Source: a virus | Lineage: Duplodnaviria; Heunggongvirae; Uroviricota; Caudoviricetes | Direction: 5' to 3' (one strand) | Length of the DNA stretch: 64,000 bases | Virus record (IMG/VR): IMGVR_UViG_2925908680_000001 | Made by a program: the position numbers and the translations under genes | The notes under the pieces: model-generated | What the model was told of the DNA's origin: nothing | The model's input: the letters and a program-made list of their open reading frames with translations, nothing else | The model's database searches: none | Shown: positions 11,019-38,814 of the stretch, in pieces | Numbering within the stretch: the stretch's first letter is position 1 | Layout: every line of letters starts with the position of its first letter

Positions 11019-11381
11019 TTAGCTATTAATCTTCACTTTTATCGCGAACACCTTTACCGGTTTATCACCGAAGTGTGGATGTGTGATTGTTTTTATTTCA
11101 TATCCGTTATACGGGACGTCTATTCTGCGACTGGAATCGTCGCGCTTCGGATATCCCTTTGTGATAATCAGGCGGTCATATTCCCGGAACATGATTCGCT
11201 TATTCCAGTAGTCATTACACAAGCGATACTCTTCCGTTTTCTCTCCAGACTTCATCTGGTCGAAATATTCACCGTTAACTGCCAGTTGAAGGTTAGCCAC
11301 GGTTAACCTCCTGCGGTGGTTCCGGTAGCGGCATCCAGTGAGTTGCCTGCTCAATACCATTACCCGGTTTAATCGTTGCAT
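11019..11381 (-). CDS. hypothetical protein, 120 aa (possibly ASCH-like)
   Basis: ORF; weak resemblance to ASCH-type small domains. Confidence 0.35.
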   Translation of the reverse strand: MQRLNRVMVLSRQLTGCRYRNHRRRLTVANLQLAVNGEYFDQMKSGEKTEEYRLCNDYWNKRIMFREYDRLIITKGYPKRDDSSRRIDVPYNGYEIKTITHPHFGDKPVKVFAIKVKINS

Positions 11382-12537
11382 CTCCGCGCCGAAAGGTGCT
11401 TCCGGTATAGCGTGCGGAGCATATTAGCGGTTCAACCAGAGAGCTATCGAAATTCACCGAAATAAGCACGTTCTGGCCCTTTTCAGGCATTCGCTCACTA
11501 CAGCTTATCCAACTATCCGAAATTACCGGAGAGTTTACGGCTAACGAGCGACCCAACTCAGCGCGGGCTTGCCAGGCTAACCAGGCAGCGTTTTTTGCGC
11601 CAACACCAGCTATGGGGAGGTTCTCGTCGTTATTCCAGGCATTGAAAGCTGCACGTTCATCAAGCCCAACAGGTACTACTGCCAACTGACTGGCATATTT
11701 GTTAATGGTAACGATAAGCTCTTGCTCAGCCTCATCCAGACAATCACCGATACCTCGCCTGTCACCGTCAAAATCATCGAAATCGGCACGAATCTTGGCA
11801 ACCTTCAGGATTGCGGACAACACCTCACTAAGAATTACCGGATAGTTGGTTGACGTTTCCGCGATTTCCCGAAAATTATTGGTTGATGTTTCCGCGATTT
11901 CCCGAAAGTTTCCGGCATGAAGCATAGCCGCGCGGCAGGCGTTCCAGCCACCACGAAACCCATTAGCCCATGCATCACTTTTCGGTAATTTCTCCATTAA
12001 ATCATCAGCAATTTCCCCAGGTACTACCGGCACTGGCTTGGCGGTATAAAGCGGTGTTATATCTGCCCGAAAATTACATGCTTTATGCAGCCGCACCCAC
12101 CGTTCGACTTCTGCTTTGTCAAAATACATACCAGTGAACGTGTTATATTCACGGTCAATTTGCGTGAATGTTACCTTCCACGCCACCGGCTCTGCTTCCA
12201 GCGATGCCAGCGCAATTCGTGCCAGTTCTTCCGCTTCTTCTGCTGGCAGTACAACGTTGCTACCCGGTCCGTATGTTTCGCGCCACTGCTTGATTGTCAG
12301 CAGTCGCTCTTTGGTTATAGTGGTCATGGGTTTTCCATCCGCCATCTCTTCATCGGTTTCCCATAAAACTCGCGCCTGCCCCTCACAGACTTGAATGACT
12401 CCGCCACGACCGCAGGAGTTGCACTTAACGGCATCGTCATCCCACAAGGCGGTTTCATTTCCGCGAGCTGTTTTGACCGTGTGTGATTTATTCCCGCAGC
12501 GGCATTTGTTGAGCCAGTCAATAGTGAAAGTTTTCAT
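11293..12537 (-). CDS. hypothetical protein, 414 aa, DUF551-like C-terminus
   Basis: C-terminal HWMPLPEPP motif; internal duplicated 11-residue unit (NFREIAETSTN x2) from a 33-bp tandem DNA repeat. Confidence 0.55.
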   Translation of the reverse strand: MKTFTIDWLNKCRCGNKSHTVKTARGNETALWDDDAVKCNSCGRGGVIQVCEGQARVLWETDEEMADGKPMTTITKERLLTIKQWRETYGPGSNVVLPAEEAEELARIALASLEAEPVAWKVTFTQIDREYNTFTGMYFDKAEVERWVRLHKACNFRADITPLYTAKPVPVVPGEIADDLMEKLPKSDAWANGFRGGWNACRAAMLHAGNFREIAETSTNNFREIAETSTNYPVILSEVLSAILKVAKIRADFDDFDGDRRGIGDCLDEAEQELIVTINKYASQLAVVPVGLDERAAFNAWNNDENLPIAGVGAKNAAWLAWQARAELGRSLAVNSPVISDSWISCSERMPEKGQNVLISVNFDSSLVEPLICSARYTGSTFRRGDATIKPGNGIEQATHWMPLPEPPQEVNRG

Positions 12538-12803
12538 GATGCCTCTCCTTTACCCGCTGCTTTCGCCTGCTCTTTAGCAAGTCGCTCCGCTTCTCTGAAA
12601 TCCCAATCCACTCGATGTGCTATATCAATTGCAGAGCGCACGGTTCGCTCAATTAGCGTATCCAGATTGTCAATTGTCATTGCCATATCTGGATTGCGAG
12701 ATAAAATCTCCGCCCTCTGAATCTGCCAGTTGTTGCAGGTTTCAAGTAATGAGTTAGCCATATCACTCTCCTTTGATGCGAATGCCAGCGGTGCGGGAAT
12801 CAT
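12534..12803 (-). CDS. hypothetical protein, 89 aa
   Basis: ORF only. Confidence 0.4.
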   Translation of the reverse strand: MIPAPLAFASKESDMANSLLETCNNWQIQRAEILSRNPDMAMTIDNLDTLIERTVRSAIDIAHRVDWDFREAERLAKEQAKAAGKGEAS

Positions 12804-13515
12804 TCCATCGCTTTACTTCTTCACGAATTACGTCAATGCATTCTTTCGAATCCATTAGGTAATCTTCATCAAAAAGACGTTCCTGTTCGTTTTCTATCGC
12901 AACAATGATTGCTTCAACTAACTTTTGTGCCTGAGAATCACTTTCTAACTCTGCTATGCGCTTCTCTGCGGCTTCCAGCTTCTCGCGCATATCGTCAACG
13001 TACTCGACCAGAGATCCGCCAGCAGGAATTTCGCACTCCTCGACCAGTTGGAAGTAGATATCAGCTGCGGCCCGTGTGTTGCTATGCCTTGCGTCGCCCA
13101 TCTCACCTTCACGAAGAGCATCGCGTTCGGCGGTAAGATTGGCTATTTTGCTGTCTTTGCCTTCCAGCTCAACGCGCAGCCTCCCAACCGTTAGCGCAAT
13201 TTCCTCGTTCTCCTGGTCGCGGCGTTTGATGTATTGCTGTTTTCTTTCCAGCTCATCCAGCAGCGCCAAGACGGTAGCCGGATTGGCTGCGGCGATGAAT
13301 TCAGCATTGGCCTGCTGTTCCATTTGGAAATCTTCATCGAAACCGCTTTCTGGATGCGCTCCTTCAATTCTGCAAATTGGAAGATATCCAACAACCTCAC
13401 GATGAATTAGCGCATCATCACCATCAAATCGGCCATTTCCATATTCGAGCGACCACACACCACACGTTGCTTTCTCTGCCTTTTCACGCAGTGCCTGATA
13501 GTCAATCTTGTTCAC
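12763..13515 (-). CDS. Ead/Ea22-like protein
   Basis: N-terminal IDYQALREKAEKAT motif typical of Ead/Ea22-like prophage proteins; coiled-coil centre. Confidence 0.6.
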   Translation of the reverse strand: MNKIDYQALREKAEKATCGVWSLEYGNGRFDGDDALIHREVVGYLPICRIEGAHPESGFDEDFQMEQQANAEFIAAANPATVLALLDELERKQQYIKRRDQENEEIALTVGRLRVELEGKDSKIANLTAERDALREGEMGDARHSNTRAAADIYFQLVEECEIPAGGSLVEYVDDMREKLEAAEKRIAELESDSQAQKLVEAIIVAIENEQERLFDEDYLMDSKECIDVIREEVKRWNDSRTAGIRIKGE

Positions 13516-14105
13516 TGGTTGCCTCCTTTGCGAAGCTGGGCGGCGAACTCGTTAAGTGATATGTAGCAATCTCCAAATGTTAACGAACCGCTCGACCGCA
13601 TATGCTCCATAGCCATCTCCACGCCCTGCGCCCGTACTTCAGCCAGGAAAGCGTCGGTAGCTGGCGTTTCGCTGTGGTGCAGGGCATCATTAATAATCAT
13701 CGCAGCAACTCCGGCCTGCCCTGCATCCGTGACCGACACATGCTCAAGAGTTACGGCCATTGCGTGTTTCAGCCCAGCGTTCTCTGCCACCAGCGCAGCG
13801 AGATTAGTCTCAAGCTCTGAAATTCGGCACGTGGCATCAATATTTGTGTCCTCCAAGCACTTAATTTCACCAAGCAGCTCCAGTGCAACCTTTGGGTTGA
13901 ACGCGGCAACATGACGAGCGTTGTTCTCTGCATTTTTCTGTCCATCAAAGCCGGTCCATTTGATAACGTCTTCACATCGTTCATCACCGGGCGTGCGCAC
14001 CGCATAAGTACCAGTATCCGTCGAAATAAATGCGACCCATTCGTCTGGTGTTGCCTTTTCTGCCGCCTCACGCAGTACCTGATAGTCAATTGTCATTCTC
14101 GCCAT
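13512..14105 (-). CDS. Ead/Ea22-like protein
   Basis: N-terminal IDYQVLREAAEKATPDEW; C-terminal [15 protein letters not shown] shared with the 17557-18219 product. Confidence 0.6.
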   Translation of the reverse strand: MARMTIDYQVLREAAEKATPDEWVAFISTDTGTYAVRTPGDERCEDVIKWTGFDGQKNAENNARHVAAFNPKVALELLGEIKCLEDTNIDATCRISELETNLAALVAENAGLKHAMAVTLEHVSVTDAGQAGVAAMIINDALHHSETPATDAFLAEVRAQGVEMAMEHMRSSGSLTFGDCYISLNEFAAQLRKGGNQ

Positions 14106-14737
14106 CCTTCACAGTTGTAATCACTACAGCCTTCAAAATCATATGGGCTGTACTGCCAGGTGATTTTTCCGCAATGCGGACAATTCCAGCGCACCTTCCC
14201 GCTTCGTGACTTCTTTCTTCTGTTTTGCTTTTTCAACCAGTCAGGCATGATCAAACCTGCGCCCTGAACCATTGTTCTGCGGTTAAAATTATTGATATTG
14301 AACGTCCGCCGCTTTGCTGCATCGGCAATGGAAAATGGCAACCAAACTATTCCTGGTTCGTTTTTGTTGGCGACGCTAAAGATGGTTGCTTTACTGAAGT
14401 CATCGGTTGGCAATCCACCGTGTTGAAGCCAGTAAACATCGTTGCCATTCCAGCAACCTTTTTTGTAGGCCACATACGCAGTGCAATCTGACTCAATCAG
14501 GCTTTCTGTAGGGATGTACTGGCAATCAACGTGCCACACTGCCATTGCATCCACGCTATCAGCGCAAACAGGCTGATCGATATCTCGACCACAATTCCAG
14601 GCTTTTTGGGCTTCTTCCAGCGTGTAAACATGAGCGCGATCGATATCAGAGCTGTAACCATTGCCGTTATGGCAATGGAATGAGGCGTTATTACCCACAG
14701 TTTCACGCAAGCACATCATGTAAAAGCGGTTATTCAC
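14093..14737 (-). CDS. Cys-rich hypothetical protein, 214 aa
   Basis: C-terminal CPHCG...C...C zinc-ribbon-like arrangement. Confidence 0.5.
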   Translation of the reverse strand: MNNRFYMMCLRETVGNNASFHCHNGNGYSSDIDRAHVYTLEEAQKAWNCGRDIDQPVCADSVDAMAVWHVDCQYIPTESLIESDCTAYVAYKKGCWNGNDVYWLQHGGLPTDDFSKATIFSVANKNEPGIVWLPFSIADAAKRRTFNINNFNRRTMVQGAGLIMPDWLKKQNRRKKSRSGKVRWNCPHCGKITWQYSPYDFEGCSDYNCEGWRE

Positions 14738-15023
14738 TGGTTGCCTCCGCTTCCCACGTTTTCAGACTTTCACCACAGAACGGGCAAAATGAAACTCGAA
14801 TCGGCGATTTAGAAAATTCACCAGACCGCAGCATGATCAGGTCCTGTGAATGAATTAATTCATGGTTATAGATTTTGTATTTCAGCAGACCTTTCCGCGT
14901 CGTGTATTCAGCATCCTGCTCCAGGGATTGTGCCAACGCCGCGCACGGTTCTATTTTTTTGTCATTAATCAAACAAGTGGAGATTCTGCACTTTGCAGCT
15001 CCGTCACCATTACCTTGACTCAT
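14730..15023 (-). CDS. hypothetical small protein with CPFCG motif
   Basis: ORF only. Confidence 0.4.
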   Translation of the reverse strand: MSQGNGDGAAKCRISTCLINDKKIEPCAALAQSLEQDAEYTTRKGLLKYKIYNHELIHSQDLIMLRSGEFSKSPIRVSFCPFCGESLKTWEAEATSE

Positions 15024-15036
15024 TGCATTGTTCCCA

Positions 15037-16032
15037 TCAGTTATTGAACGTGATCACTCCGCGCTCGATGGCGAAGTCGAAAAGCTGGTTGGCGGCTACG
15101 TAAAGGCGTATGCCATGTGCTTTTTCCCATGCCCGGACATCGTTTTCTGCGCTTCTGGCGCATTCATCGCAAAGAGGAACGGCCCAGCGATCGTGTTCGT
15201 TTAACGAGCGGGCGCGGTACATGAACGGGTGGTTAACTTTGCCACCGCATCCGATGCACGGACGAGAAACCACAAACCGGAGATAAGCCGGGCTTTTACC
15301 GAGGACCGCTTTTGGTCGGCGCATATACAGCAGGCCAGAATCCTCATCTACAGACAGGTTGACGATCTGCTCTGCGGTTATGTCCACCAGCTCGCGCGTA
15401 CTGCGCTCCCAGGTGATATCTGATTCTTTCAGCGTACCGGTAGGGATGTCAGTTTTTGGCTGACAAAATGCAATGCGACCAGCTTCATCAGGCAGTTCGT
15501 CTTTAAGATTCCGGCGAATGGCCCAAAAGGTGAGTTCAACCATGCTCAGATCGCGATCTGGCGGAAGTTTTAACTCGCTGGCAGCCCAGTTCATAATCCA
15601 GTTGGCGCGATTCAGTGACAGTTGGTCTTCCAGCTTGCCGTATCCCTTCATCATGTATTCCGCATCATGCTTCCAGCACAGGCGAACGGCAGAACCGTTA
15701 TAGAAGTGAGTGGTTAGCTGGTGGCTACAATCGCGCTTATCATGCGCCTGGCAATCGTGAATGTTGGTGCTAACCCAGTGAACGATAGAATCCTCGCCAC
15801 CTAACGCATTAAATACGCGCTCACTTTGAAAAAAGGGTGTCAGTGACTGGTTGGCAACCAGGGAATAATTCAGGTCCACGACGCCATCAGGGGTGTTTTC
15901 AGCCTGTTCGCGCGGCAATGGGGAGATAAGAAAACGGCGACCGGCGCCGATGTAATTGCTGGTGGGCTTATCTACAGGAAAGACAGCCACACCAGTTTCA
16001 TTTACGACATATGGGGTGATTATTGCACTCAT
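15037..16032 (-). CDS. hypothetical protein, 331 aa, with C-terminal Cys cluster
   Basis: CIGCGG...CDEC zinc-binding-like C-terminus. Confidence 0.55.
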   Translation of the reverse strand: MSAIITPYVVNETGVAVFPVDKPTSNYIGAGRRFLISPLPREQAENTPDGVVDLNYSLVANQSLTPFFQSERVFNALGGEDSIVHWVSTNIHDCQAHDKRDCSHQLTTHFYNGSAVRLCWKHDAEYMMKGYGKLEDQLSLNRANWIMNWAASELKLPPDRDLSMVELTFWAIRRNLKDELPDEAGRIAFCQPKTDIPTGTLKESDITWERSTRELVDITAEQIVNLSVDEDSGLLYMRRPKAVLGKSPAYLRFVVSRPCIGCGGKVNHPFMYRARSLNEHDRWAVPLCDECARSAENDVRAWEKAHGIRLYVAANQLFDFAIERGVITFNN

Positions 16033-16136
16033 AATGCATACCGACTCTGTTTTGTTCCGAGCGGTAAAATAATATGTTAGAAAATTAAAATCAACAATCT
16101 AACACGATTTTGAGCGCGTAAACGATGTAACCCGGC

Positions 16137-16820
16137 TTACGGTTGCCCTCCCTTCACCTGCATTAGCGTCAGGTTTCCGCAAAATACAGCACCAGTATCG
16201 ATATAATGCTGGTTCCAGAATGCTTTTGGGCTTTTAGCCGGGGTGTGTCCGAAGATAAAGCGATCTGCACCTGTAATTTCTTCACCGATGCCATCTATCG
16301 AATCACTAACACGGTCGCGCGACCAGATGACATTGAAAAGCGGCACAGCCTTACCGAACTGATACTCTCTATCCGGATAGTCAGCATGAGCAATGACAAT
16401 AGTCTCCTGCCCGGTGTTCAGCTCAATGATATGAGGCAATTGCCTTACCAGCTCCACCAGCGCCCTGGCTAAAACTTCCTTATCACTATCCAGCATAAAG
16501 AACCACTGGCCGCCATTCATTAGCCAGTTATTCACGTTTCCAGCTGGGCTTAACGCATCGATCATCAACCGCTCATGGTTACCCATGACAGCCCGGAACC
16601 AGGGCATCTGCAATAACTCCAGGCATTCGACATTTTCAGTACCGCGATCGATAAGGTCGCCGACTGATATCAGTAAATCCTGCGCCGGGTCAAAATCCAC
16701 ACGATGGAGTTCATTCATAAGCAGGGTGTAGCAACCGTGCAAATCACCAACAACCCATATGTTTCTGTATCCTGAACCATCAATACGGCTATATAACGCC
16801 TGGTCGTTAACGGTGATCAT
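16137..16820 (-). CDS. Ser/Thr protein phosphatase (lambda PPase / calcineurin-like)
   Basis: GDLHG, GDLIDRG, GNHE metallophosphatase motifs. Confidence 0.85.
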
Positions 16821-27229: not shown

Positions 27230-28063
27230 ATGCACCCTCGATACCTGATAAATCGACCTTTGAGGATGCTTATGGGCCGTTTTGACGAATGGTTTTCTGA
27301 CGATGCAAACCTGGCAAGTAAGGAGTCAGAACATGACAGCACGCAGAGAGAAACGCCAGCGCCGATTGAAGCGAATGCAGGAGGCGCGCCGGAACATGGC
27401 AATACCAGTTCGGATTCATTCAGCATTCTGGAAGAGCAACCCGCCGCCAAAGCTGATAGCCATGATAATTTTGCTGATAGCAACGGTGGCCTTACTCCAG
27501 ATGCTGGCGAATCAGATATAGCCATACTTCCACCTTCCCTGGCTGGCAGAGAACCAACTCCACAGCTAAAAGCACGCTATAACGGGCATAAAGCCTTTAA
27601 CGACCAAATCCGCACAGACTGGATGCTGATTATTGAATCCAGCCCAGACGCGTTTCAGGCTCTCTTATATCGACCAGATGTTGGCACATATGGGGTAGTC
27701 AGCGACGAAACAGGAGAAGAGTCATTCACTGAACTGGATAACAACCAACGCGAACTGACTTACCAGGAACCTGAAATCGTTTATGTGCTGGATAACCCGG
27801 ACGGGCGTGACTCTTTCCATGCGATTGACGCAGACGGTGAGCAGGATGGCTTAACCGATGATGTTCTGATTCTGCGTATTGCAGCAAATAACGTCCCCGT
27901 CGGCTCAATTCTTGAATGGAATGAAGAGATGGTAAACGGCGTAGCCCGCCGCTGGTGGTACGTGCACCGTATTTTTAGCTACGGCACACAGCATGTTGGT
28001 TCGCTTTACTACTGCATACCAGCCAGGAATTTTGATACGACTCAAAACGGAGTGATCGAATGA
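27230..28063 (+). CDS. acidic hypothetical protein, 277 aa
   Basis: ORF; strongly D/E-rich. Confidence 0.45.
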   Translation: MHPRYLINRPLRMLMGRFDEWFSDDANLASKESEHDSTQRETPAPIEANAGGAPEHGNTSSDSFSILEEQPAAKADSHDNFADSNGGLTPDAGESDIAILPPSLAGREPTPQLKARYNGHKAFNDQIRTDWMLIIESSPDAFQALLYRPDVGTYGVVSDETGEESFTELDNNQRELTYQEPEIVYVLDNPDGRDSFHAIDADGEQDGLTDDVLILRIAANNVPVGSILEWNEEMVNGVARRWWYVHRIFSYGTQHVGSLYYCIPARNFDTTQNGVIE

Positions 28064-28827
28064 CTTCAAATAAAACCCTCCTGGCGCGAACAGGTGAATG
28101 GCAAACCTCACGCACAGGAAAATTCCAGACCACGGGCTTTGAAAACGTGGATAACGCGTTTGCGACGCTAATCAGCAACATTTTTTCTGATATCTTACTG
28201 GTGGCCCCCGCGCCGGAAGAAAAACGCTTTGCGTCATTCTTGAATCGTCCACCAGCAGAGCGTGTCTATGTGGCCCGTTTCGACAATGCGATCGAGTTTC
28301 TTAAAGCAGTTCGTCGCGCAAATGCCGGGCAAGGGAGAAAACCTGAAAACCAGAACATTAACCGGGATGCTCTCCCCCTGGTCAATATCTCACGCACTAT
28401 GGATATCAATTATATCAACGATGATCAGCAGATTGACCGCAAAAAAGTAGCCAGTTTTTGCGAACCGGATACCGGAATGCCTTTAGCAGAACTGGAATAC
28501 ACCCAGGCCATTCTGACGTATGACGTTACGTTAATGGCAACTGATAAAGCGACCATGAGTCTGATGTGTAATTCGCTGGGCGCACGGCTTCGCCTGATGA
28601 CAGGTACACAATTTGAAGCAACCACTCACCTTGTTCGTGTTCCGGTCCCGCTGATTTGCTCGATACAGGATGCCAAAGAAGTCGGCTTTACGGATGTTTC
28701 AGCACCAATTGGAGAAGAGCGTATTTATGCCACACAAGCGCCGATAAGTGTGATTGCAGACGTGATCACAGCATGGGAGTTGGACGCAAAACGTATTATT
28801 ACCGAAACCTCGATATCTATGGGGTGA
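28060..28827 (+). CDS. hypothetical (possibly virion-associated) protein
   Basis: ORF in operon with a baseplate-like gene. Confidence 0.45.
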   Translation: MTSNKTLLARTGEWQTSRTGKFQTTGFENVDNAFATLISNIFSDILLVAPAPEEKRFASFLNRPPAERVYVARFDNAIEFLKAVRRANAGQGRKPENQNINRDALPLVNISRTMDINYINDDQQIDRKKVASFCEPDTGMPLAELEYTQAILTYDVTLMATDKATMSLMCNSLGARLRLMTGTQFEATTHLVRVPVPLICSIQDAKEVGFTDVSAPIGEERIYATQAPISVIADVITAWELDAKRIITETSISMG

Positions 28828-28830
28828 TAA

Positions 28831-29811
28831 GTGGCCCAGGAGTTACAACAATATTTTCTACAGTCAGTGCTCATTAACGATAACAAAGTGCCACGAGACT
28901 GGATTTTTACCGCAGTATATGTAGAAAAAACCAGCCTCAAAGCCCCTTTGCTAAAACTGGAAATTCATGACGCTACCGGCACCGTAATTGATGACTGGAA
29001 AGCCAAATACGGTGCATCGCTGGTGGCTGAAATGGGCGAACCAAACGGTAATGCAGGCACTTTTAAAACAGATTTCTTTGTTACGTCTGCAATGCTGGCT
29101 GGTGATGTTGTTACCGTTATTGCTGTCAGTGAAGACGTGCGCAGGTTTAAGATCCCCTCCCCGCGCACAAATTTACATACCAACAAAACACCAGACGCTA
29201 TATTCAAGGCATATTCCGGCAAGCTTAAAATTACCAGCAGCGTGCTAAAACGCGCAGTTACATATCATCTGAATGCCGGTGACAAACCGTCAAAAATGCT
29301 TTCGGAGATAGCGCGAGACAAAGGTGCATTATGTTGGGTATGCCGGGGGGAATTTAACTTTTACACCCTGGCTGATCTGATGAAGCAAACGCCATCATTT
29401 ACCTACGAGGGGAATAACCCTAAAGCAGAATACACTTTGTCCAAAATGCGCCTACTCCAACAGGAACATGCGACAACAGCAAAGAATCAATATCGTTTTG
29501 TTGGGTATTCCATGACCGATGGCTACGTCGAATATGGCGATAGCTCACTCCCAGTGCGTTATATATCCGACTCTGATATGGAAACTCTTCGCAATATGCA
29601 GCTGTCTCTCGTCCCCAAAATGGATATAGAAGTCGCAGGCAATCCTGATATAAAACCGGGGATGGTGATAGAGATTATCGTATACCGCTATGACCAGGAA
29701 AACCGCATTGATGAATCAATGCCCCGTAAGCTGATAGTAAAAAATGTTGCGCACTTTGAAGACCGCGTAGGCTACACAACACGAATGATATTGGGAGTGC
29801 CGAACAAATGA
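28831..29811 (+). CDS. hypothetical (possibly virion-associated) protein
   Basis: ORF in operon. Confidence 0.45.
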   Translation: MAQELQQYFLQSVLINDNKVPRDWIFTAVYVEKTSLKAPLLKLEIHDATGTVIDDWKAKYGASLVAEMGEPNGNAGTFKTDFFVTSAMLAGDVVTVIAVSEDVRRFKIPSPRTNLHTNKTPDAIFKAYSGKLKITSSVLKRAVTYHLNAGDKPSKMLSEIARDKGALCWVCRGEFNFYTLADLMKQTPSFTYEGNNPKAEYTLSKMRLLQQEHATTAKNQYRFVGYSMTDGYVEYGDSSLPVRYISDSDMETLRNMQLSLVPKMDIEVAGNPDIKPGMVIEIIVYRYDQENRIDESMPRKLIVKNVAHFEDRVGYTTRMILGVPNK

Positions 29812-30461
29812 AGCGTAGAGCGCAAATTGTTGGAACTGTGCACCCGGCAGGGCTTATGCGTGCTCAAGTCCGTGTTTTACCTGACTGGAATGGCGTTCCT
29901 GATGACGATCTACCCTGGGCGGAATACCTGTTACCCATCGGAAACGCTTTTGTACCCACAGTCAAAGGTGACCTGGTCTGGGTAGAGTTTCCTTATTTAG
30001 ATGTTAACGGTCGAATAGACACCAGACGCCCAATGATAGTTGGTGCCGCTCAGGATGCACCGGGTGGAATTCCAAACGTTGCACCAGAAGCATCTGGCAA
30101 AGGCAACGGCTGGACGCCGCCGGAAGTAGATGGAGCACCTCCCCGCCCCCAAATCTCAGCAACGAAAGACTTCGTTATTCACCGCAACAATATTCTTGAA
30201 GTACGAACTGCTGGTGGCGGCTATGAAATTGCCAATACGGCAGCAGGCTCAAGGATTGGCATGAATGAGTCCGGGCAGATATATATCATTGGTCCGGCTG
30301 ATGTAATCGTGAATGCAGGAGGGAGTGTTAACGTCAAATCAGCCAACAACATCAATGTTAATGGGGAAAATATAGCTGTCACCGCTAACGGAGACATAGC
30401 TTTCAAGGCAGGAGGAACCTTTCAGGCCACTGCTGGCAACTTCGATTTCAAGAAAGGATAG
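29808..30461 (+). CDS. baseplate spike/hub-like protein
   Basis: N-terminal region resembles the OB-fold of phage baseplate V/gp5-type proteins; C-terminal G/N-rich repeats suggest a beta-helix. Confidence 0.45.
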   Translation: MKRRAQIVGTVHPAGLMRAQVRVLPDWNGVPDDDLPWAEYLLPIGNAFVPTVKGDLVWVEFPYLDVNGRIDTRRPMIVGAAQDAPGGIPNVAPEASGKGNGWTPPEVDGAPPRPQISATKDFVIHRNNILEVRTAGGGYEIANTAAGSRIGMNESGQIYIIGPADVIVNAGGSVNVKSANNINVNGENIAVTANGDIAFKAGGTFQATAGNFDFKKG

Positions 30462-30520
30462 AAAATGCACCCATTTGTGTTAGATAATTAACATGTATTT
30501 TCTAACACAAATGGTGAGAC

Positions 30521-31426
30521 ATGAGATCAGTCGCTTTCAAAAATATCTTCATCTATCGTCTTTCACGCGAAGTTAGCTGGGATACTGCAGCGGTAAACGC
30601 TGCTCTTGGCAAATTTGTGTTTACCCCATGCGGTTCTCAGGACATGGTTAAAGCTGGTTGGACGCCTGTTCTTGGCAACAACCTCACACATGAATACCAG
30701 GGTTTTCTTCTGATACAGCATAAACGAGAGGAAAAAATCCTACCTTCTCAAGTGCTCAAAGAAGAGTTACAGAAAAAAATCCTGACACTTGAAGAAGAGC
30801 AAGACAGAAAGCTGAAGAAGACCGAAAAAGATTCGCTGAAGGATGAAGTGCTTCACTCTCTTCTTCCTCGTGCTTTCACGAGAAAATCACTCGCCAAAAT
30901 CCTGATCGACCGCAGCAACCATCTGGTATTCGTTGAGGCAAGCAGCGCCAAAAAGGCAGAGGACCAGCTGGCTTTATTGCGAAAATCGCTCGGCAGCCTG
31001 CCTGTCATTCCATTCACACCACGCGAACCGCTGGAAATTACAATGACCGAGTGGTTTAAAAACGGCTTCCCTGCCGGATTTACAGCAGGTGAAGACGCCA
31101 CATTAAAGGGTCTGCTCGATAATGGTGGTGCCGTTCGCTGCAACAAAGTTGATCTACAGTCCGACGAGATTATGTCTCACATTGAGGCGGGGAAAGTAGC
31201 TACGACCGTTGCAATTAACTGGATGGAACGCGCGTCGTTCAGAGTCAACGATGATATGAGTATCAAAGCCCTGACATTCTGTGATGATCTCTATGACCAG
31301 AACGACGATATCGACCGGGAGGATGTAGCACAACGATTTGATGCTGATTTCGTGCTCTTTACGGGCGAATTATCTGCACTGTTTAACGCGCTGGTGGAGG
31401 CCATTGGCGGTGAAGCAGAACGATAA
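30521..31426 (+). CDS. rdgC: recombination-associated protein RdgC homolog
   Basis: Collinear with E. coli RdgC (FKNxxxYRLSRE, FTPCGSQDM, KEEKILPSxV, KKTEKDSLKDEVLHSLLPRAF, LALLRKSLGSLPV). Confidence 0.85.
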   Translation: MRSVAFKNIFIYRLSREVSWDTAAVNAALGKFVFTPCGSQDMVKAGWTPVLGNNLTHEYQGFLLIQHKREEKILPSQVLKEELQKKILTLEEEQDRKLKKTEKDSLKDEVLHSLLPRAFTRKSLAKILIDRSNHLVFVEASSAKKAEDQLALLRKSLGSLPVIPFTPREPLEITMTEWFKNGFPAGFTAGEDATLKGLLDNGGAVRCNKVDLQSDEIMSHIEAGKVATTVAINWMERASFRVNDDMSIKALTFCDDLYDQNDDIDREDVAQRFDADFVLFTGELSALFNALVEAIGGEAER

Positions 31427-32090
31427 TAACCGACAGCTTGTTGTGAGTCTTTGTGATTTTACGGGGGCAATGGTTGCCCCCTGGCTGGAATACGGTGTCG
31501 ATGCCGCTATCGTCGATCCACAGCACTTATCGACCAGTGACGAGCGGATGCAATCAGGTGCCGTTCTGACGCGTATTAGTGCGATCATCGATAGCGATGA
31601 AGTATACGCTTTTCTCCGTAAGAATTTGCAGCGCATCGTGTTTCTGGCCGGGTTCCCACCGTGTACTGACCTGGCTGTTTCCGGCGCGCGCTGGTTTTCG
31701 GACAAGGCTAATAAAGATCCGGTTTTCCAGTTCAAAGCAATGCAGGTTGTCTGGCAGTGTTATGACATTGCAAAGATGATCGGTTGTCCGTACATGATTG
31801 AAAATCCGGTCAGCAAAATATCGACATTCTGGCGTAAGCCAGATCACATCTTTCACCCTTACTTCTTCACTGCATATTGTCAGGAAGATAACTACACCAA
31901 AAAAACATGCCTCTGGAGCGGCCAGGGCTTTGTCATGCCTGATGCCCTAATGGACGAATCATTAGGCAAGCCAGATAACAGAATCCATGCCGCGCCACCA
32001 GGGCCTGACAGGGCTAATTTTCGAAGTGCTACTCCACATGGATTCGCAAAGGCAGTTTTCGAAGCGAATAAGGGGGTGCTCTATGAGTAA
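31410..32090 (+). CDS. short C5-cytosine methyltransferase-like protein
   Basis: PPC-containing motif (FLAGFPPCTDLAVSG) and ENV motif (YMIENPV); start uncertain (GTG at 31410 or a downstream start). Confidence 0.5.
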   Translation: MKQNDNNRQLVVSLCDFTGAMVAPWLEYGVDAAIVDPQHLSTSDERMQSGAVLTRISAIIDSDEVYAFLRKNLQRIVFLAGFPPCTDLAVSGARWFSDKANKDPVFQFKAMQVVWQCYDIAKMIGCPYMIENPVSKISTFWRKPDHIFHPYFFTAYCQEDNYTKKTCLWSGQGFVMPDALMDESLGKPDNRIHAAPPGPDRANFRSATPHGFAKAVFEANKGVLYE

Positions 32091-32988
32091 ATCTATAGCA
32101 AGCATAGCCATAGAAAAACAGGATACGATGGCTGAAATTAGCTATATGCGCACCATTCGGACTCAGGATGAATATGAGCGTCCGATATTCAAATGGGTAG
32201 GTGGTAAATTCTCAGAATTGCCTACAGTGCTTGAGCATCTACCACACGGTAAGCGGTTAATAGAACCATTCGTTGGTGGCGGTTCCGTATTTACGAATGC
32301 AGGATTTCGCCACAACCTGCTTAATGATATTAACGGTGACCTGATTAACTTCTATCAGACATTGCAGCGAGAAGGACATTCGCTTGTCACGCTGTCATAT
32401 AGTTTTTTCCAAAATTACAACAACGCTGACGCTTACCTCGAAGTGCGTGAGGCATTTAACAGAGGAAAGTATGACCAGCTACATCATGCTGCCGCCTTTT
32501 TGTACCTTAATCGGCACTGTTTTAATGGCGTAACGCGGTACAACCAAAATGGCGAGTTCAACGTGGGGTATGGCAAATACAAAGCGCCCTACTTCCCACA
32601 TGCAGAGATGGAGGCATTTTTGGCTGATGACGTACTCAAAAACACGTCCTTTGTATCAGGTGACTTTGCTGGCGTCATCGAGGCGGCTGGTGAAGGCGAT
32701 GTGATTTTTTGCGATCCGCCGTATGAACCGCTGCCGGATACAGAAGGGTTTACCAGTTATTCAGGAAATAGCTTCCGTTTCGACGAACAGAAACGGCTGG
32801 TATCTCTATTGGTGGAAGCCCACCAGCGCGGCGCTAAGGTAGTGATAACAAATAGTGGTGCGCCAAACATCCGTGAACTATATGAAGGAAACGGGTTTAA
32901 AGTACATCATATGGCAGCCAGACGGTCGGTGTCCTGCAAGGCGTCAACACGTGTAGTTGCTAACGATATAATTGCAATAATGAAGTAA
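32083..32988 (+). CDS. dam: DNA adenine methyltransferase (Dam family)
   Basis: KWVGGK, FVGGGSV and DPPY motifs; start ATG overlaps the upstream stop. Confidence 0.85.
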   Translation: MSKSIASIAIEKQDTMAEISYMRTIRTQDEYERPIFKWVGGKFSELPTVLEHLPHGKRLIEPFVGGGSVFTNAGFRHNLLNDINGDLINFYQTLQREGHSLVTLSYSFFQNYNNADAYLEVREAFNRGKYDQLHHAAAFLYLNRHCFNGVTRYNQNGEFNVGYGKYKAPYFPHAEMEAFLADDVLKNTSFVSGDFAGVIEAAGEGDVIFCDPPYEPLPDTEGFTSYSGNSFRFDEQKRLVSLLVEAHQRGAKVVITNSGAPNIRELYEGNGFKVHHMAARRSVSCKASTRVVANDIIAIMK

Positions 32989-33020
32989 AAAACGCCGCAG
33001 TAGCGGCGTTTACTTTTTTA
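32989..33020. terminator. bidirectional rho-independent terminator
   Basis: aacgccgc-agta-gcggcgtt hairpin with T/A runs on both sides, between convergent dam and glnS. Confidence 0.55.
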
Positions 33021-33036
33021 TGTGGCGAAATACCTA

Positions 33037-34698
33037 TTAACCTAACTTCGCCCAGGTATCACGCAGCCCAACGGTGCGGTTAAATACCGGTTTTTCCGCC
33101 GTAGAATGGCGGCTGTCGAGGCAGAAATAACCTTCACGCTCAAACTGGAATGCTTTACCCGCTACCGCTTCTTTCAGCGACGGTTCAGCAAAACCCTGTT
33201 TGATCACCAGCGATTCCGGGTTAATCACCGACAGGAAATCATCCGCAGCACCTGGGTTCGGCACGCTGAACAGACGATCGTACAGGCGGATTTCAACCGG
33301 CAGCGCATGTGCCGCGCTCACCCAGTGAATAACGCCTTTCACTTTACGACCATCTGCCGGATCTTTGCTTAAGGTGTCGGCGTCATAAGTACAGAAGATG
33401 GTGGTGATATTGCCTTCGGCATCTTTCTCCACGCGTTCAGCCTTAATGACGTAAGCATTACGCAGACGCACTTCTTTACCCAGCACCAGACGTTTGTACT
33501 GCTTGTTAGCTTCTTCTCGGAAATCGGCGCGGTCGATCCAAATCTCACCGCTAAACGGCACCTGACGGTTACCCATTTCCGGTTTGTTTGGATGGTTCGG
33601 CATGGTGACCATTTCGCCTTCGCCCTGATAGTTTTCGATGACCAGTTTCACCGGATCGATAACCGCCATTGCGCGCGGCGCATTTTCGTTGAGATCTTCA
33701 CGGATGCAGGATTCCAGCGACGCCATCTCAATGGTGTTGTCCTGCTTGGTCACGCCGATGCGTTTGCAGAACTCACGAATAGAAGCCGCAGTGTAACCAC
33801 GACGACGCAGACCGGAAATGGTCGGCATACGCGGGTCATCCCAGCCTTCAACGTGCTTGTCGGTCACCAGCAGGTTCAGCTTACGCTTGGACATCACAGT
33901 GTATTCCAGATTCAGGCGCGAGAATTCGTACTGGCGCGGGTGAACAGGAATGGTGATGTTGTCCAGCACCCAGTCGTAAAGGCGACGGTTGTCCTGGAAC
34001 TCAAGCGTACACAGAGAGTGCGTAATACCTTCCAGCGCATCGCTGATGCAGTGGGTGAAGTCGTACATCGGGTAGATGCACCACTTGTTGCCAGTCTGGT
34101 GGTGTTCAGCAAACTTAATGCGATACAGCACCGGATCGCGCATCACGATAAACGGCGAAGCCATGTCGATTTTCGCACGCAGGCAGGCTTTACCTTCTTC
34201 AAAACCACCGGCACGCATTTTTTCGAACAGCGCCAGGTTCTCTTCAACGCTGCGATCGCGGTACGGGCTGTTTTTACCCGGCTGCGTCAGGGTGCCGCGG
34301 TATTCGCGGATCTGTTCCGGCGTCAGTTCGTCAACATACGCCAGGCCTTTGTTGATCAGTTCAACAGCATAGGCGTGGAGCTGATCAAAATAATCGGAGG
34401 AGTAACGGATGTTGCCAGACCAGTGAAAACCTAACCATTCAACGTCGTTTTTAATCGACTCGACGTACTCGATATCTTCTTTTACCGGGTTAGTGTCGTC
34501 GAAACGCAGGTTGCACTGGCCTTTATAGTCCTGGGCGATCCCGAAGTTCAGGCAGATAGATTTCGCATGACCAATATGCAGATAGCCATTCGGTTCCGGC
34601 GGGAAACGGGTATGTACTGTGGTGTGCTTACCACTGGCCAGATCTTCATCGATGATCTGACGAATAAAGTTAGTCGGGCGGGCTTCTGCCTCACTCAT
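33037..34698 (-). CDS. glnS: glutaminyl-tRNA synthetase
   Basis: 553-aa translation matches E. coli GlnS from memory with only a handful of substitutions (HIGH and VMSKR motifs present). Confidence 0.95.
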
Positions 34699-34966
34699 TG
34701 TGGATTCCTCAAAGCGTAAACAACGTATAACAGCGTATGATCTTATAAGCCGAATAGGCTGACAACCACTAGTTGATTAGAAATTGCTTTCTATCGTTAT
34801 TTCAATAATGAGCTTTTTCATTAAGCCCACTTTTGCGCATAAGTAAATTAATGACAAATGGTACACAATTGGAACCAAAAAGGATGTAAAGGTGCACCAA
34901 ATTAGTGGTGTATTGGTGCACCTTTGGTTCAAGACTTTTTAAGTTCTAAAACCAACCTGAAAGACT

Positions 34967-35254
34967 TTATTTTGCTTCCTCAGACTCCGCTAACATGAGG
35001 ATAGCATGGCGGATCATATTCAATTTGCTACGATTATGCTTTTTACTTAACGCATCAAGTACCTGGTACTCGTATTCATTGAAACCAACACGAATAGATT
35101 TAAAATCACGTGGAGCGTCCTTATCGAGCACTTTGTTGTCTTCTGGTTGCTCACCCGGCACCAAATCAGCCTTACTTGCAAAATCCTCAATTCGGCGTTC
35201 AAGATCGGGGTCTTTTACTTCGGGGGCTTTTACCGATTTACGAGGCTTAATCAC
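34967..35254 (-). CDS. small partition DNA-binding protein (ParG/ParB-like)
   Basis: 95-aa ORF immediately downstream of, and overlapping, a ParA-type ATPase gene. Confidence 0.5.
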   Translation of the reverse strand: MIKPRKSVKAPEVKDPDLERRIEDFASKADLVPGEQPEDNKVLDKDAPRDFKSIRVGFNEYEYQVLDALSKKHNRSKLNMIRHAILMLAESEEAK

Positions 35255-35888
35255 TTAATAACTCCTTAACCAACATCTGGATTTCACCTTTAGCTTTCCC
35301 GTTGTCCATCTCAACAACGCCCTTCCCTTCAGCCATGCAATCGCGGTAAACCTTACGATCACGAATGATGGTTTTCAGCAACTTCAGTTGCGGATATTCA
35401 GCCAGGTACTCTTTGGCCTCATTGGTTTCATTCACAACCGGATTGGATGGGGCCATTGTTAAGACTGCGAACGCCTTAATGCTAGGATTAGGCATCAGGT
35501 CCAAAGCCTCTTCAAACACTTCAACAAAGTGTGCCAGCGTGTCTAAATCTGGTTGAGATGGTCTGAATGGGACCAACACAATATCTGCAGCGGTTATGCC
35601 TGTACGCATCTCTTTGCTATCGCGCCCGGCTGTATCAACAACTACAAATTCATAACGCTTATCCAGATCGAGAAGTGTTTCTCGAATATTACCAAACTTC
35701 TGGACACAATGAATTACAGGAGAAACCTCTGCCGTGTTACGGTCAGCGGCCCAGCGGGCAGCTGTTCCTTGCTTGTCTGCATCTAGTAACACTACATCCT
35801 TATTTTCGCGGGCAAGCTCCGCACAGATGTTTACGCTTGTGGTTGATTTTCCACAGCCACCTTTTTGGCTGACTACCAATATAATCAT
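35247..35888 (-). CDS. parA: ParA/ParF-type partition ATPase
   Basis: Deviant Walker A (KGGCGKST) and ParA family layout. Confidence 0.85.
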   Translation of the reverse strand: MIILVVSQKGGCGKSTTSVNICAELARENKDVVLLDADKQGTAARWAADRNTAEVSPVIHCVQKFGNIRETLLDLDKRYEFVVVDTAGRDSKEMRTGITAADIVLVPFRPSQPDLDTLAHFVEVFEEALDLMPNPSIKAFAVLTMAPSNPVVNETNEAKEYLAEYPQLKLLKTIIRDRKVYRDCMAEGKGVVEMDNGKAKGEIQMLVKELLSD

Positions 35889-35889
35889 A

Positions 35890-36170
35890 TCCGTTCCTCG
35901 GTGTTATTTTGGTATCAAACTGGTTCCAAACAGAAGCCTTATTGATGCGGTTTTGGCTCTATAGTGGAGTCATTATGCTTTGCAAAAGTATAACACTAAT
36001 CATTCTAAATTTGCCCTCTGTTGCATCCTGTTTAACACGAAATCAGCACTAAATTGGAACCAGATACAAAGCAGCACCATAACAACACCGTTTTGGTACT
36101 AAAAGAGCACCAAACTAGAATCATAACGGTATAAAAAAGGCTGCAAATTGCAGCCTTTGAAGATGTAGAT
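35890..36170. repeat. centromere-like repeat region (TTGGTAC / TGGTTCCAAA / GGTGCACC motifs)
   Basis: Multiple direct and inverted short repeats upstream of parA; related motifs also at about 34860-34930. Confidence 0.35.
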
Positions 36171-36173
36171 TGG

Positions 36174-36545
36174 TTAATCAGGGAGTGAGTTTGCCAAATT
36201 CTGAGCAGAGCGGCTTTTCGGAACGCCTGGTTTTTTTACATCCTCTGAGACAGAGGTTTTTCCTTCAGTAGGTTCCCGAACTTCATGCGAAATTTCAAGA
36301 AACGAAACCAGCATTTTTCTGATCACTTCAGAGCTATTATCACCGGATAAAAGCGATGCCAACATGGGAGGTAATCTGCTATCAACCTCGCCAAGAGCGA
36401 TACCTGCAAGCATCGCAGTGCGCACCATATCATTGCGATCACTTAATGGATGGGCCTCAATTTTTGCCACAGCATATTGCTCACTGGCGTAAGCGTTAAG
36501 ATCTGAACGAAGATAAAACATTATTTTTCGACGTTCTTTAGACAT
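36174..36545 (-). CDS. ParR/StbB-like partition adaptor
   Basis: Small ORF immediately downstream of the actin-like ATPase gene. Confidence 0.5.
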   Translation of the reverse strand: MSKERRKIMFYLRSDLNAYASEQYAVAKIEAHPLSDRNDMVRTAMLAGIALGEVDSRLPPMLASLLSGDNSSEVIRKMLVSFLEISHEVREPTEGKTSVSEDVKKPGVPKSRSAQNLANSLPD

Positions 36546-36555
36546 GGCAACCTCA

Positions 36556-37515
36556 TCAACCGATAGATTTTAGACCATATACAAGAGCAAGTTGTGGATC
36601 ATCAGCAACGAAAAACCTATCGTCACGAATGTTTACCTGCTCACGGATAGCATCAGCAACAAGCGGCGCGCCGCCACCAATTACCATAACATGTGTGTAT
36701 CCTTTGAAATCACTGATCACATCCAGTACGCGTGTACGGAGTCGCTCTATGCTTGACGAAATGGCTTTCTTAACATCATCAATAGCAGACGGATCGTTAA
36801 TATTGTCGGTCAGATAATCCTCATCATCTCGATTAATGATTAATTGATCGACGTTATAATTAGAGGTTTCGGTATTAGCTTTTGCAAGTGCCTGTCTGAC
36901 CTCTTTAGTTACCAGCGAAACGCCGAGATTAGAATCGCCAAATACGCGAGAAACGGCGGTCATTTGCCCGGCAACCATCGACACATCCAGAGTAGTCCCG
37001 CCAAGATCAACAATAAGCACAGAATGCGCTGGCACAAGGCTGTCGCACAGACCGATCCCTGCGGGTATTGACTCCGGGCGCACAGTCACTTTTTTGATAG
37101 TAAAAACCTGACCTTTGTTAAGGGTGACTGGTCGCATCAGGCTGGCCTTTTTCCGCTCAATATTTTTCATGTTGTATTGTGCGTCGTCGTCATAAAACTC
37201 TGCCAGTGGCAACGTGACTACTATTTCCACTTCTTGAGGCTCAATGCCACTTGTAAGCAGGGCATGATGAACAGCAAGCACATTAAGCGGGCTGTATTGC
37301 CATTCAACGTTATTCGTTGGCAGAACATCCGGCGAGATCAAGTCATATGAATATTTTTCGTCATCAATGATGTAGTTAAACGTTTTTCCTGCGCCAAATG
37401 TGGCGGACCATCCACGTTTAAAACTGTTCGGGCAGATATGGGTTCGAGTTTCCCCGTCTTGTTCCCACAGCATTTTGATATTGGTAGAACCATCGTCGAT
37501 AAAAATGCGCATCAT
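36556..37515 (-). CDS. parM: ParM/StbA actin-like segregation ATPase
   Basis: Actin-fold motifs (IFIDDGSTNIK, VLIVDLGGTTLD, VMVIGGGA); start taken at the internal MMRIF. Confidence 0.85.
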   Translation of the reverse strand: MMRIFIDDGSTNIKMLWEQDGETRTHICPNSFKRGWSATFGAGKTFNYIIDDEKYSYDLISPDVLPTNNVEWQYSPLNVLAVHHALLTSGIEPQEVEIVVTLPLAEFYDDDAQYNMKNIERKKASLMRPVTLNKGQVFTIKKVTVRPESIPAGIGLCDSLVPAHSVLIVDLGGTTLDVSMVAGQMTAVSRVFGDSNLGVSLVTKEVRQALAKANTETSNYNVDQLIINRDDEDYLTDNINDPSAIDDVKKAISSSIERLRTRVLDVISDFKGYTHVMVIGGGAPLVADAIREQVNIRDDRFFVADDPQLALVYGLKSIG

Positions 37516-37610
37516 ATTGCTCCACTTCTGAGACACATTTGAGAAAGAATTGAATCTTATATGAGAAAACAAAATAAAACCAGAAGTTGAGAGAGCAAAA
37601 AGCACCAGAT

Positions 37611-37666
37611 TTGAGACAAACCAGAGACAAACTAGAGACACACTAGAGACAAGTATGAGAAACAAG
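37611..37666. repeat. parC-like iterated repeats
   Basis: Four to five tandem copies of about 11 bp (ccagagacaaa, ctagagacaca, ctagagacaag) upstream of parM. Confidence 0.5.
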
Positions 37667-37723
37667 AAATCTTAAGAGTGAAAATCACAAAGTGGAGAAG
37701 ATTTAAGAAAAAGGAGGTGTTAG

Positions 37724-38008
37724 ATGAGTGCAATAGCGACCTGTGACACAGTTTGTTCCGGTCATGGAGGATTCCCTCCGCGACCTGTAGCAGAAACAGT
37801 TTCCTGGTTTACCGTAAATGGAAAGCCAGTTGTTGTAGATGGTGCCATGTTTCCCAGTCACACTGACGGTAACAGTGCACATCCAGGGGCAGCTGTATCG
37901 ACGCGAGTATGGTTTTCGATAGGTGGAAAGGGAGTTGTCTGTGTAGGCGATCCGCTTTCTTGTGGTTCTGTTATCGCCAACGGCGAGGATATTTTTCAGG
38001 TTGCATAA
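37724..38008 (+). CDS. PAAR-like domain protein, 94 aa
   Basis: Gly/Cys-rich small protein with PAAR-like spacing (CSGHGG, GDPLSCGSV). Confidence 0.45.
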   Translation: MSAIATCDTVCSGHGGFPPRPVAETVSWFTVNGKPVVVDGAMFPSHTDGNSAHPGAAVSTRVWFSIGGKGVVCVGDPLSCGSVIANGEDIFQVA

Positions 38009-38814
38009 TGCTTGATTCAATAGGTGAAGTTAAAGCCTTCAAAATTCTGTCAGATGCCGGTATCTCTACACCAGAATCTATAACCATAAGCCGGGCAGCT
38101 TCTGTAAAAGCCTCATCGCTCGCCAGCGCCATACAGGGAATAGTTCACGCCGATAAAACCTATCCTGATTCTGTTTCGGCCTGGACTACTCAATTGCTTG
38201 GCTTTTCTGAACAGCTCAATGAGGCCAGCAAAGCGTCTTCATCACTGGCTGATTCTCTTTCCCCATACACCAAGCCATCAGAGCTGTTACAGATGAAGAT
38301 TGGCTGGGAATGCTACGCAAAAGGTAACGAGCTGACCCCCATACCTGCTTTCGCCCTTGTTGAGGGAATGGGGAATGTTTCCATTCCGCAATCTCTAACG
38401 GACGCATTGACGGCGCTAAAACTTGATGCTCTGAAAACCGCCATGAACGCCATTAACGCAAAAATTGAAGCTGCCGGAAGTGCTGGTGGTGGTGAAAGCA
38501 ATGGTGGACAGGGTGGTGCTGGGGGCGCTCAGGCTCCAGTCATTACTCAGGATGAAATTGATGCTTTACGGGAAGCAGTGACAGCCGCCGAAGTTTTACT
38601 CTCCGAAATTAACTCAGCAAGTGAGGGTGTCGTAGCCCTTACAGGTCGCATTAAAACGTCAACCACTCAGGCAACCAAAGGTTTAGAGAACGCTGTCGCC
38701 ATCACGTTAACTGGTTCTCTACTGGATGATGCAGTAATGAGTCCGGCAATCAGTTTAATCATGCCACAAGGCGTTATCGATGCGCTCCAAAAGAACACCA
38801 AAAAGGAACCATAG
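38008..38814 (+). CDS. hypothetical Ala/Ser/Gly-rich protein
   Basis: ORF from the ATG at 38008 (MLDSIGEV); low-complexity G/S linker. Confidence 0.45.
   Translation: MLDSIGEVKAFKILSDAGISTPESITISRAASVKASSLASAIQGIVHADKTYPDSVSAWTTQLLGFSEQLNEASKASSSLADSLSPYTKPSELLQMKIGWECYAKGNELTPIPAFALVEGMGNVSIPQSLTDALTALKLDALKTAMNAINAKIEAAGSAGGGESNGGQGGAGGAQAPVITQDEIDALREAVTAAEVLLSEINSASEGVVALTGRIKTSTTQATKGLENAVAITLTGSLLDDAVMSPAISLIMPQGVIDALQKNTKKEP

Follow-up and report, generated by a model that had tools for sequence, protein, structure and literature searches.

The glnS locus and its cassette

The stretch of viral DNA analysed here (64,000 nucleotides, IMG/VR record IMGVR_UViG_2925908680_000001; hereafter the window) belongs to a D6-type phage-plasmid, i.e. 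a plasmid-prophage, and carries on its minus strand a gene for glutaminyl-tRNA synthetase (GlnRS), glnS. The gene coincides exactly with an open reading frame (ORF) with an ATG start at 33037-34698, whose product is a glutamine--tRNA ligase of 553 amino acids. BLASTP alignment of this product with GlnS of Escherichia coli K-12 is gapless, with 548 of 553 residues identical, which bears out the original prediction of a full-length GlnS with few residue differences. The differences from K-12 are V97I, I112V, S377N, D510E and V552L, together with the loss of the terminal E554. The protein scores 1067.5 bits against TIGR00440, the NCBIfam equivalog of glnS (cutoff 425.8), over profile positions 1-524 of 524, and its Pfam domains PF00749 (28-337), PF03950 (340-439) and PF20974 (456-528) represent the catalytic domain and the two anticodon-binding β-barrel domains. 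The E. coli GlnRS structures 1o0b and 1gts of the PDB align with it end to end. Both signature motifs, HIGH at 41-44 and VMSKR at 268-272, are intact and identical to those of K-12, and the same is true of all 18 tRNA- or glutamine-contact residues checked. All five substitutions are conservative, and none falls within the two motifs or among these 18 residues. Judged from its sequence, the gene is a full-length, host-derived and apparently functional glnS on a phage-plasmid backbone. It also forms a compositional island, with a GC content at third codon positions of 0.613 as compared to 0.462 ± 0.054 for 48 backbone ORFs, which is host-like and not ameliorated.

Alignment to E. coli chromosomes indicates that the insert is one complete chromosomal glnS transcription unit of ~1.8 kb (~33000-34810), comprising the promoter, leader, coding sequence and terminator. 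The chromosome-derived leader and promoter occupy 34699-34810 on the minus strand. The sigma-70 glnS promoter consists of a -35 element TTGTCA (34765-34760) and, after a 17-nt spacer, a -10 element GATCAT (34742-34737) that holds a Dam GATC site, and the ribosome-binding site GAGGA lies at 34710-34706. The homology of the leader to the E. coli chromosome is clear to ~34786 and has faded by ~34810 (~ -110), and the E. coli chromosome matches are confined to the window from ~33041/33047 to 34766/34786, at 95.9-97.2% identity. At the 3' junction the chromosomal homology breaks two to three codons ahead of the stop; the C-terminal ends are AKLG-stop in the window and in D6, AKVGE-stop in K-12 and AKVEG-stop in the Escherichia fergusonii plasmid pEF-4, and the last glnS codons were rebuilt at this junction.

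Downstream of the gene, a bidirectional intrinsic terminator, AAACGCCGC-agta-GCGGCGTTT, lies at 32990-33011. Its hairpin (AAACGCCGC...GCGGCGTTTTTT) has its homologue in the glnS terminator of Escherichia and Citrobacter chromosomes (AAACGCCGCgctcTGCGGCGTTTT), the core of which directly follows glnS in Citrobacter chromosomes and is found after an intervening repetitive extragenic palindromic (REP)-like element in E. coli chromosomes. On the phage-plasmid the terminator now also ends the convergent dam gene. The comparison of junctions and flanks with enterobacterial chromosomes, as suggested in the original prediction, identifies the leader and terminator as the only chromosomal sequence around the gene: there are no nagE or chiP remnants at the cassette flanks, and the 180 bp upstream (34787-34968) are matched by D6-type elements only and by 0 of 80 enteric chromosomal loci. 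The cassette is bracketed by 13-nt direct repeats (repeat family D12, spacing 1828 nt), 12/13 identical, of which the left copy, ATTGCAATAATGA, lies at 32971-32983 (plus strand) in the 3' end of dam and the right copy, ATTTCAATAATGA, at 34799-34811 (plus strand) at the upstream cassette edge. This direct repeat may be a microhomology or a target duplication left by the insertion, or it may have arisen by chance. An 11-nt inverted pair adjoins the direct repeats (32961-32983 and 34789-34811).

The predicted location of glnS between a dam methyltransferase and partition loci is confirmed. A Dam-family N6-adenine methyltransferase (D6 orf63, P1 dmt-like) is encoded convergently with glnS at 32083-32988 on the plus strand, its start coordinate being inferred from the D6 annotation. 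Directly upstream of glnS, at 34967-35888 on the minus strand, lies the operon for ParA (213 amino acids) with an overlapping 95-aa ORF, which represents the plasmid backbone beyond the empty site described below. This ParA is type Ib-like, and the overlapping ORF is without a family match. Two partition modules adjoin here on the minus strand, at 34967-35888 and 36174-37665, the latter being of the ParM/StbA type with a small 'stability' protein. The spacer at 34811-34966 is non-chromosomal and specific to the D6-type backbone. Within it, GGTGCACC/GGTACAC repeats accompany two perfectly matching 13-nt inverted repeats, AAAGGTGCACCAA and TTGGTGCACCTTT, at 34885-34925 (34888-34925 as annotated for the palindrome pair). 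These lie between the promoter of glnS and the point at which the parA operon ends. Diverged GGTACAC repeats occupy the equivalent spacer position in a sister clade without glnS, and the inverted repeat together with the GGTACAC repeats is a candidate centromere or operator.

The 2.9-kb block at 32500-35400 is 98.5% identical to Escherichia phage D6, the neighbouring gene order matches D6 orf58-orf69, and D6 orf62 is annotated as 'glutaminyl-tRNA synthetase, similar to E. coli GlnS'. In the window from 1 to 25000, D6 covers 56% at 93.9% identity and another 22% is ~95% identical to P1 and SJ46, so that the accessory part of the backbone within this range reads as a mosaic. At 6204-16788 lies an accessory region, ~95% identical to phage P1 and to SJ46 of Salmonella, whose genes include ppp, pmgS and polynucleotide kinase/phosphatase. 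The label 'P1-family' given in the original prediction is acceptable in a broad sense only; P1-type genes and some P1-identical segments are present, but the element is D6-like and not P1 itself. The D6-like group is taken here as the P1-related plasmid prophages of PLSDB rep_cluster_1704. ARAGORN found no tRNA genes, tRNA-Gln included, in the window. D6-like plasmids are reported to carry four tRNAs, for Asn, Thr, Ser and Met (PMC6799933), and these genes are presumably located in the part of the element outside the window.

Distribution, age and exchange with the chromosomal gene

Of 5,426 complete E. coli genomes, 70 have the dam / glnS / hyp / parA block at full length, in every case on a plasmid of ~90 kb. 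The full-length block is also present in 98 PLSDB plasmids, while the glnS segment itself is found on about 105 D6-type plasmids. The original prediction had named an assembly chimera of plasmid and chromosomal reads as a possible source of the gene. Such a misjoin is excluded for practical purposes, because the identical architecture with the same junctions recurs in the independently sequenced D6 and in more than 100 complete circular plasmids from E. coli, Salmonella, Shigella and E. fergusonii; the plasmid-specific 3' end and the lack of nagE/chiP flanks also speak against it. The view of glnS as unusual cargo is upheld, as a host-like GlnRS is present in D6 only among 50,697 phage records.

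An empty site is seen in the syntenic plasmids pMUB-MIN14-1, NZ_CP104667.1 and NZ_CP098883.1 (89-92 kb; loci L002, L116 and L117), in which the dam stop is followed by ~135 bp with a different terminator and then by the 95-aa ORF and parA, with no glnS in between. Since the partition region occurs in 102 E. coli genomes and the glnS block in 70, roughly one third of the wider group is without the cassette. The possibility, raised beforehand as one that would overturn the prediction, that glnS is a conserved backbone gene in all relatives is thus largely borne out within the D6 clade and contradicted by the sister clade. The 102 E. coli matches to the partition region (relatives among the 5,426 genomes) all come from plasmids, with no chromosomal match, and integration into the chromosome via glnS homology was rejected on this ground. 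The window from 28000 to 33000 (tail genes to dam) is only ~74.5% identical to the sister clade, whereas the partition flank at 34969-38048 is 92-96% identical to it and 86-89% identical to most glnS-bearing plasmids of the D6 clade; from these identities, modules appear to have been exchanged right beside the cassette. Indels occur in only 2 of about 105 plasmid glnS copies. The candidate pseudogenes of NZ_CP031917.1 and NZ_CP027382.1, the only two copies left without annotation, were rejected, their scattered 1-nt deletions being probably long-read errors. The 90% identity of the D6-like plasmid pSa1423-90k (L005, Salmonella sp.) is not considered biological, as numerous small indels run through glnS in this almost unannotated sequence, which has the look of a long-read assembly left uncorrected.

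The insertion is best explained as a single old event that defines the D6 clade, and the explanation as a whole, including the exchange and the role considered below, is given a probability of roughly 0.55. The near-identity to the host gene, from which a recent capture had been predicted, holds for the protein (99%) and not for the DNA, as the closest of the 5,426 E. coli chromosomes is only 97.2% identical to the glnS of the window. Synonymous divergence (dS; pairwise, Nei-Gojobori) between the window and E. coli chromosomal alleles, the closest included, is 0.11-0.16, as compared to 0.12 between K-12 and a B2-type E. coli chromosome, an upper value among chromosomes. The corresponding values are 0.098 for D6, 0.23 for pEF-4 and 0.24 for an Escherichia albertii chromosome. 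The flanking parA, parM, rdgC, baseplate gene and methylase of the window and pEF-4, on the other hand, differ by dS values of 1.2 to above 4, i.e. they are saturated. As pEF-4 and D6 have a common upstream junction sequence (GAAAGCAATTTCTAATCAACTAGTGG...) and terminator, the shared junctions and the saturated backbone indicate that the cassette is older than the deep divergence of the backbone, yet has not diverged with it. A donor search in genome contigs returned, among the matches listed, E. albertii, one divergent Escherichia and other genera, and no E. fergusonii, E. marmotae or Salmonella.

A recent capture of glnS from an E. coli or Salmonella chromosome by this very element would agree with the 99% protein identity to K-12 GlnS and with the unameliorated, host-like composition. 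It is, however, highly improbable, given that no chromosome among the 5,426 genomes exceeds 97.2% DNA identity, that over 100 elements have the same junctions, among them pEF-4, whose backbone divergence is saturated, and that allelic diversity within the clade amounts to a dS of about 0.1.

The plasmid alleles read as mosaics of Escherichia chromosomal allele types, which indicates recurrent gene conversion. In D6, nt 1110-1572 of glnS are K-12-like at 21/22 informative sites and the remainder is plasmid-like at 30/35 (max-chi-square, permutation p = 0.002). In the IMG/VR contig L094, nt 1311-1437 are E. albertii-like at 11/12 sites (p = 0.002), a patch also present in pZ1323HEC0010-2, and L095 and L103 contain B2-like tracts (p = 0.01 and p = 0.002); with 500 permutations, 0.002 is the floor for p in these tests. 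The clearest tract is that of pAPEC201603, in which nt -1 to ~1460 are 99.5% identical to a chromosomal allele while both the leader and the 3' end agree fully (100%) with the plasmid type. A single nucleotide site combines fixation in the sampled D6 clade with absence from the sampled chromosomes. Recurrent conversion with the resident chromosomal glnS would explain why glnS is less diverged than the backbone and compositionally unlike it.

The K-12-like patch of D6 was also considered as a laboratory artefact of growth on C600 and this was rejected, since the wild Salmonella plasmids pSL26_91 and pFSIS11922707-2 share the allele at 99.8%. Salmonella-like patches were not seen in Salmonella-borne plasmids, in a comparison made without any Salmonella chromosomal glnS. 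The GCTGTT (I112V) patch at glnS nt ~300-350, otherwise plasmid-typical, is found in 2 of the 5,426 chromosomes, those of E. coli 2017-02-2CC (L124) and E. coli 2020CK-00188 (L125), where it would represent either a rare donor-type allele or a plasmid-to-chromosome transfer.

The pairwise ratio of nonsynonymous to synonymous divergence (dN/dS) of glnS is 0.02-0.04. Variants private to the plasmid clade, a class defined relative to the sampled chromosomes and thus including variants that may exist in unsampled ones, comprise 44 synonymous and 9 nonsynonymous changes (~0.06), as compared to 26 and 1 for E. coli chromosomes. This pattern suggests that the plasmid GlnS protein is under purifying selection, and its similarity to the host protein would be due to strong purifying selection together with repeated gene conversion with chromosomal alleles.

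Possible roles of the plasmid-borne enzyme

The most likely of the roles considered, and one that can be put forward tentatively, is extra GlnRS dosage. As the plasmid enzyme is expected to be biochemically interchangeable with the host GlnRS, its benefit should be quantitative. In a lysogen, the extra glnS copy would provide a roughly twofold dosage, and during lytic replication the glnS copies would be largely amplified. The chromosomal glnS promoter is repressed by Dam methylation, with a change of +1.08 log2 in a dam mutant (PMC11741368), an effect that is credited, as cited in that paper, to Plumbridge & Soll 1987. The D6-clade copies and pEF-4 have retained the GATC of the -10 element, and glnS lies tail to tail with the phage's own Dam-type methylase. 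Such a Dam-repressed promoter would be most active on under-methylated DNA, that is, newly entered or newly replicated DNA, and under a shortage of glutamine or of GlnRS the added enzyme would increase the capacity for charging tRNA(Gln). In enterics the glutamine pool collapses under nitrogen limitation, a condition under which GlnRS capacity would be a plausible bottleneck.

Several observations weigh against the combination of an old insertion, recurrent conversion and a dosage role. Codon bias is strong in glnS, which depresses dS and makes the difference from the backbone look larger than it is, and conversion from the chromosomal copy, itself under selection, may have brought in part of the low dN/dS. 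Which way sequence was exchanged is ambiguous, given the plasmid-type patch in two chromosomes, and the parents for the mosaic tests were picked after inspection of the data, from a pool of about 10 chromosomal alleles. The sister clade thrives without glnS (~32 as compared to 70 E. coli genomes). The backbone proteome, with 4.06% Gln, is not Gln-rich, and the window is without a tRNA-Gln or any other tRNA, so that no special demand for glutamine is obvious; a Gln-rich phage proteome or a linked tRNA-Gln as the reason for carrying glnS was rejected on these data. The functional half of the explanation is, moreover, drawn from sequence comparison.

Plasmid maintenance by addiction would require the take-over of an essential function: most or all of the GlnRS would have to be expressed from the plasmid copy, and loss of the plasmid would then be penalised, as has been proposed for the cysteinyl-tRNA synthetase (CysRS) of plasmid pBT1. 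There is a precedent and a proposal of this kind for D6-like elements (PMC6785131, PMC6799933), and the long retention under purifying selection and the position of the cassette beside the partition modules would fit. This role is nevertheless unlikely. The plasmid enzyme is not distinct from that of the host, unlike the diverged, less active CysRS(pBT1); continuing conversion implies that both copies coexist; and toxin-antitoxin systems are already present on these elements. The counts are also consistent with carriers keeping the chromosomal glnS, with matches in 5,425 of 5,426 genomes at 5,428 chromosomal places, these being genome-wide counts. Counter-defence or resistance has a comparably small likelihood. 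Cells with extra copies of aminoacyl-tRNA synthetases (aaRSs) resist inhibitors of these enzymes, and tRNAs encoded by phages protect against anticodon nucleases; in the same manner an extra GlnRS would buffer the cell or the phage against an agent directed at GlnRS or tRNA-Gln, e.g. a tRNase toxin, a kinase toxin or a natural aaRS inhibitor, by titration or by faster recharging, and it is this lineage that holds the only host-like phage GlnRS. The catalytic and tRNA-contact residues checked are, however, unchanged, so that there are no insensitivity substitutions among them; no inhibitor, biosynthetic or immunity genes were seen linked to glnS, its neighbours being dam and the partition genes only; and we know of no GlnRS-specific toxin.

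The cassette may also be a neutral hitch-hiker or homology handle without any GlnRS benefit, in which case it would persist by chance, conversion would repair the copy and the only effect would be homology for recombination with the chromosome. The direct evidence of recombination with chromosomal alleles and the success of the sister clade without the gene are both in line with this. Conversion cannot, however, undo deletions, and essentially no D6-clade genome has lost the 1.8-kb cassette, although the phage packages by headful and is constrained in genome size. Further, the plasmid-private variants still show the excess of synonymous over nonsynonymous changes given above, and 0 of 5,426 chromosomes contain an integrated D6-type element. 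A neutral cassette is accordingly regarded as improbable, to about the same degree as the two roles above. Extra dosage stays the preferred role, and a more extended version of it is possible, though doubtful: active selection would act on the D6-clade glnS as a cassette controlled in both dosage and timing, its Dam-repressed promoter would fire on under-methylated DNA that is entering or replicating, recurrent conversion would keep it compatible with the host, and the phage-plasmid would both depend on essential-gene alleles and shuttle them between Escherichia lineages.

Relation to known systems and significance

The D6-clade glnS is already published, and the finding as such is known. D6 orf62 (glnS) was reportedly described by Gilcrease & Casjens 2018 (Virology). 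The gene has also been reported as a moron in D6-like genomes, e.g. pYU39_89 (Silva et al. 2019, PMC6799933). D6 orf62 is the same gene as that of the window, in the same position (dam / glnS / hyp / parA) and with the same junctions. The window allele differs from it by 2.3% of the DNA and lacks the K-12-like patch of D6 in its 3' third, and its partition module, unlike that of D6, belongs to the type seen in the sister clade that lacks glnS. The chromosomal E. coli glnS (nagE-glnS-chiP; structures 1GTS, 1QTQ and 1O0B) shares the promoter, leader, ribosome-binding site, terminator core and 99% of the protein residues, and the window copy differs from it in the last two codons, which are changed, in the loss of one codon, in the lack of a REP before the terminator and in its location on a low-copy phage-plasmid.

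Another plasmid-borne synthetase is the CysRS of Salmonella Typhimurium D23580 plasmid pBT1, a diverged enzyme of lower activity that takes the place of a chromosomal copy whose expression is down-regulated (PMC6333337, PMC6785131). It resembles the present case in that an essential class I aaRS gene is duplicated on a large low-copy plasmid and a role in maintenance or host physiology has been proposed for both, and differs in that the GlnRS of the window is 99% host-like and the chromosomal copy is apparently retained. Two further plasmids carry glnS with its own leader and terminator, as in the window, namely Citrobacter cronae p.S175-1.4 (L007 1918-5742), an MPF_I conjugative plasmid with cysS and glnS near a HigB toxin, and a 133-kb plasmid of Enterobacter ludwigii (L006 788-6002), with glnS, beside two integrases and dinQ, on an integrase-flanked island. 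In these, however, the backbones, donors (86-87% DNA identity) and junctions are different, which points to independent captures.

The GlnRSs of megaphages or jumbo phages (uncultured genomes of 630-735 kb) are 50-57% identical and stand within large sets of translation genes, in contrast to the single host-type cassette of the D6 clade on a 90-kb temperate phage-plasmid. Resistance or self-immunity paralogues of aaRSs include the mupirocin-resistant IleRS and the agrocin-immune LeuRS. Paralogues of this type have a diverged active site and/or are linked to a locus for biosynthesis of, or resistance to, the inhibitor, and the GlnRS of the window has neither, its checked residues being identical to those of the host. 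GlnRS homologues of 85%, 75% and 48-55% protein identity are also present in the IMG/VR contigs L100 and L104-L107, one of which is a 159-kb contig.

With the gene and the puzzle it poses being published already, the added value of the present analysis is incremental; it consists of the age argument against a recent capture, the delimitation of the insert as an entire transcription unit with its terminator, the sister clade with an empty site, and the evidence for concerted evolution with the chromosomal gene. About 1-2% of complete E. coli genomes contain this temperate phage-plasmid, in which a working gene for an essential translation enzyme is stably kept, and this raises the question of how an extra, host-identical aaRS benefits a mobile element, whether by dosage under glutamine limitation, by maintenance or by counter-defence. 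It likewise raises the question whether alleles of an essential core locus can be exchanged by way of the plasmid copy. If the extended version of the dosage role were true, the D6 clade would represent a case of concerted evolution between a mobile element and a core gene.

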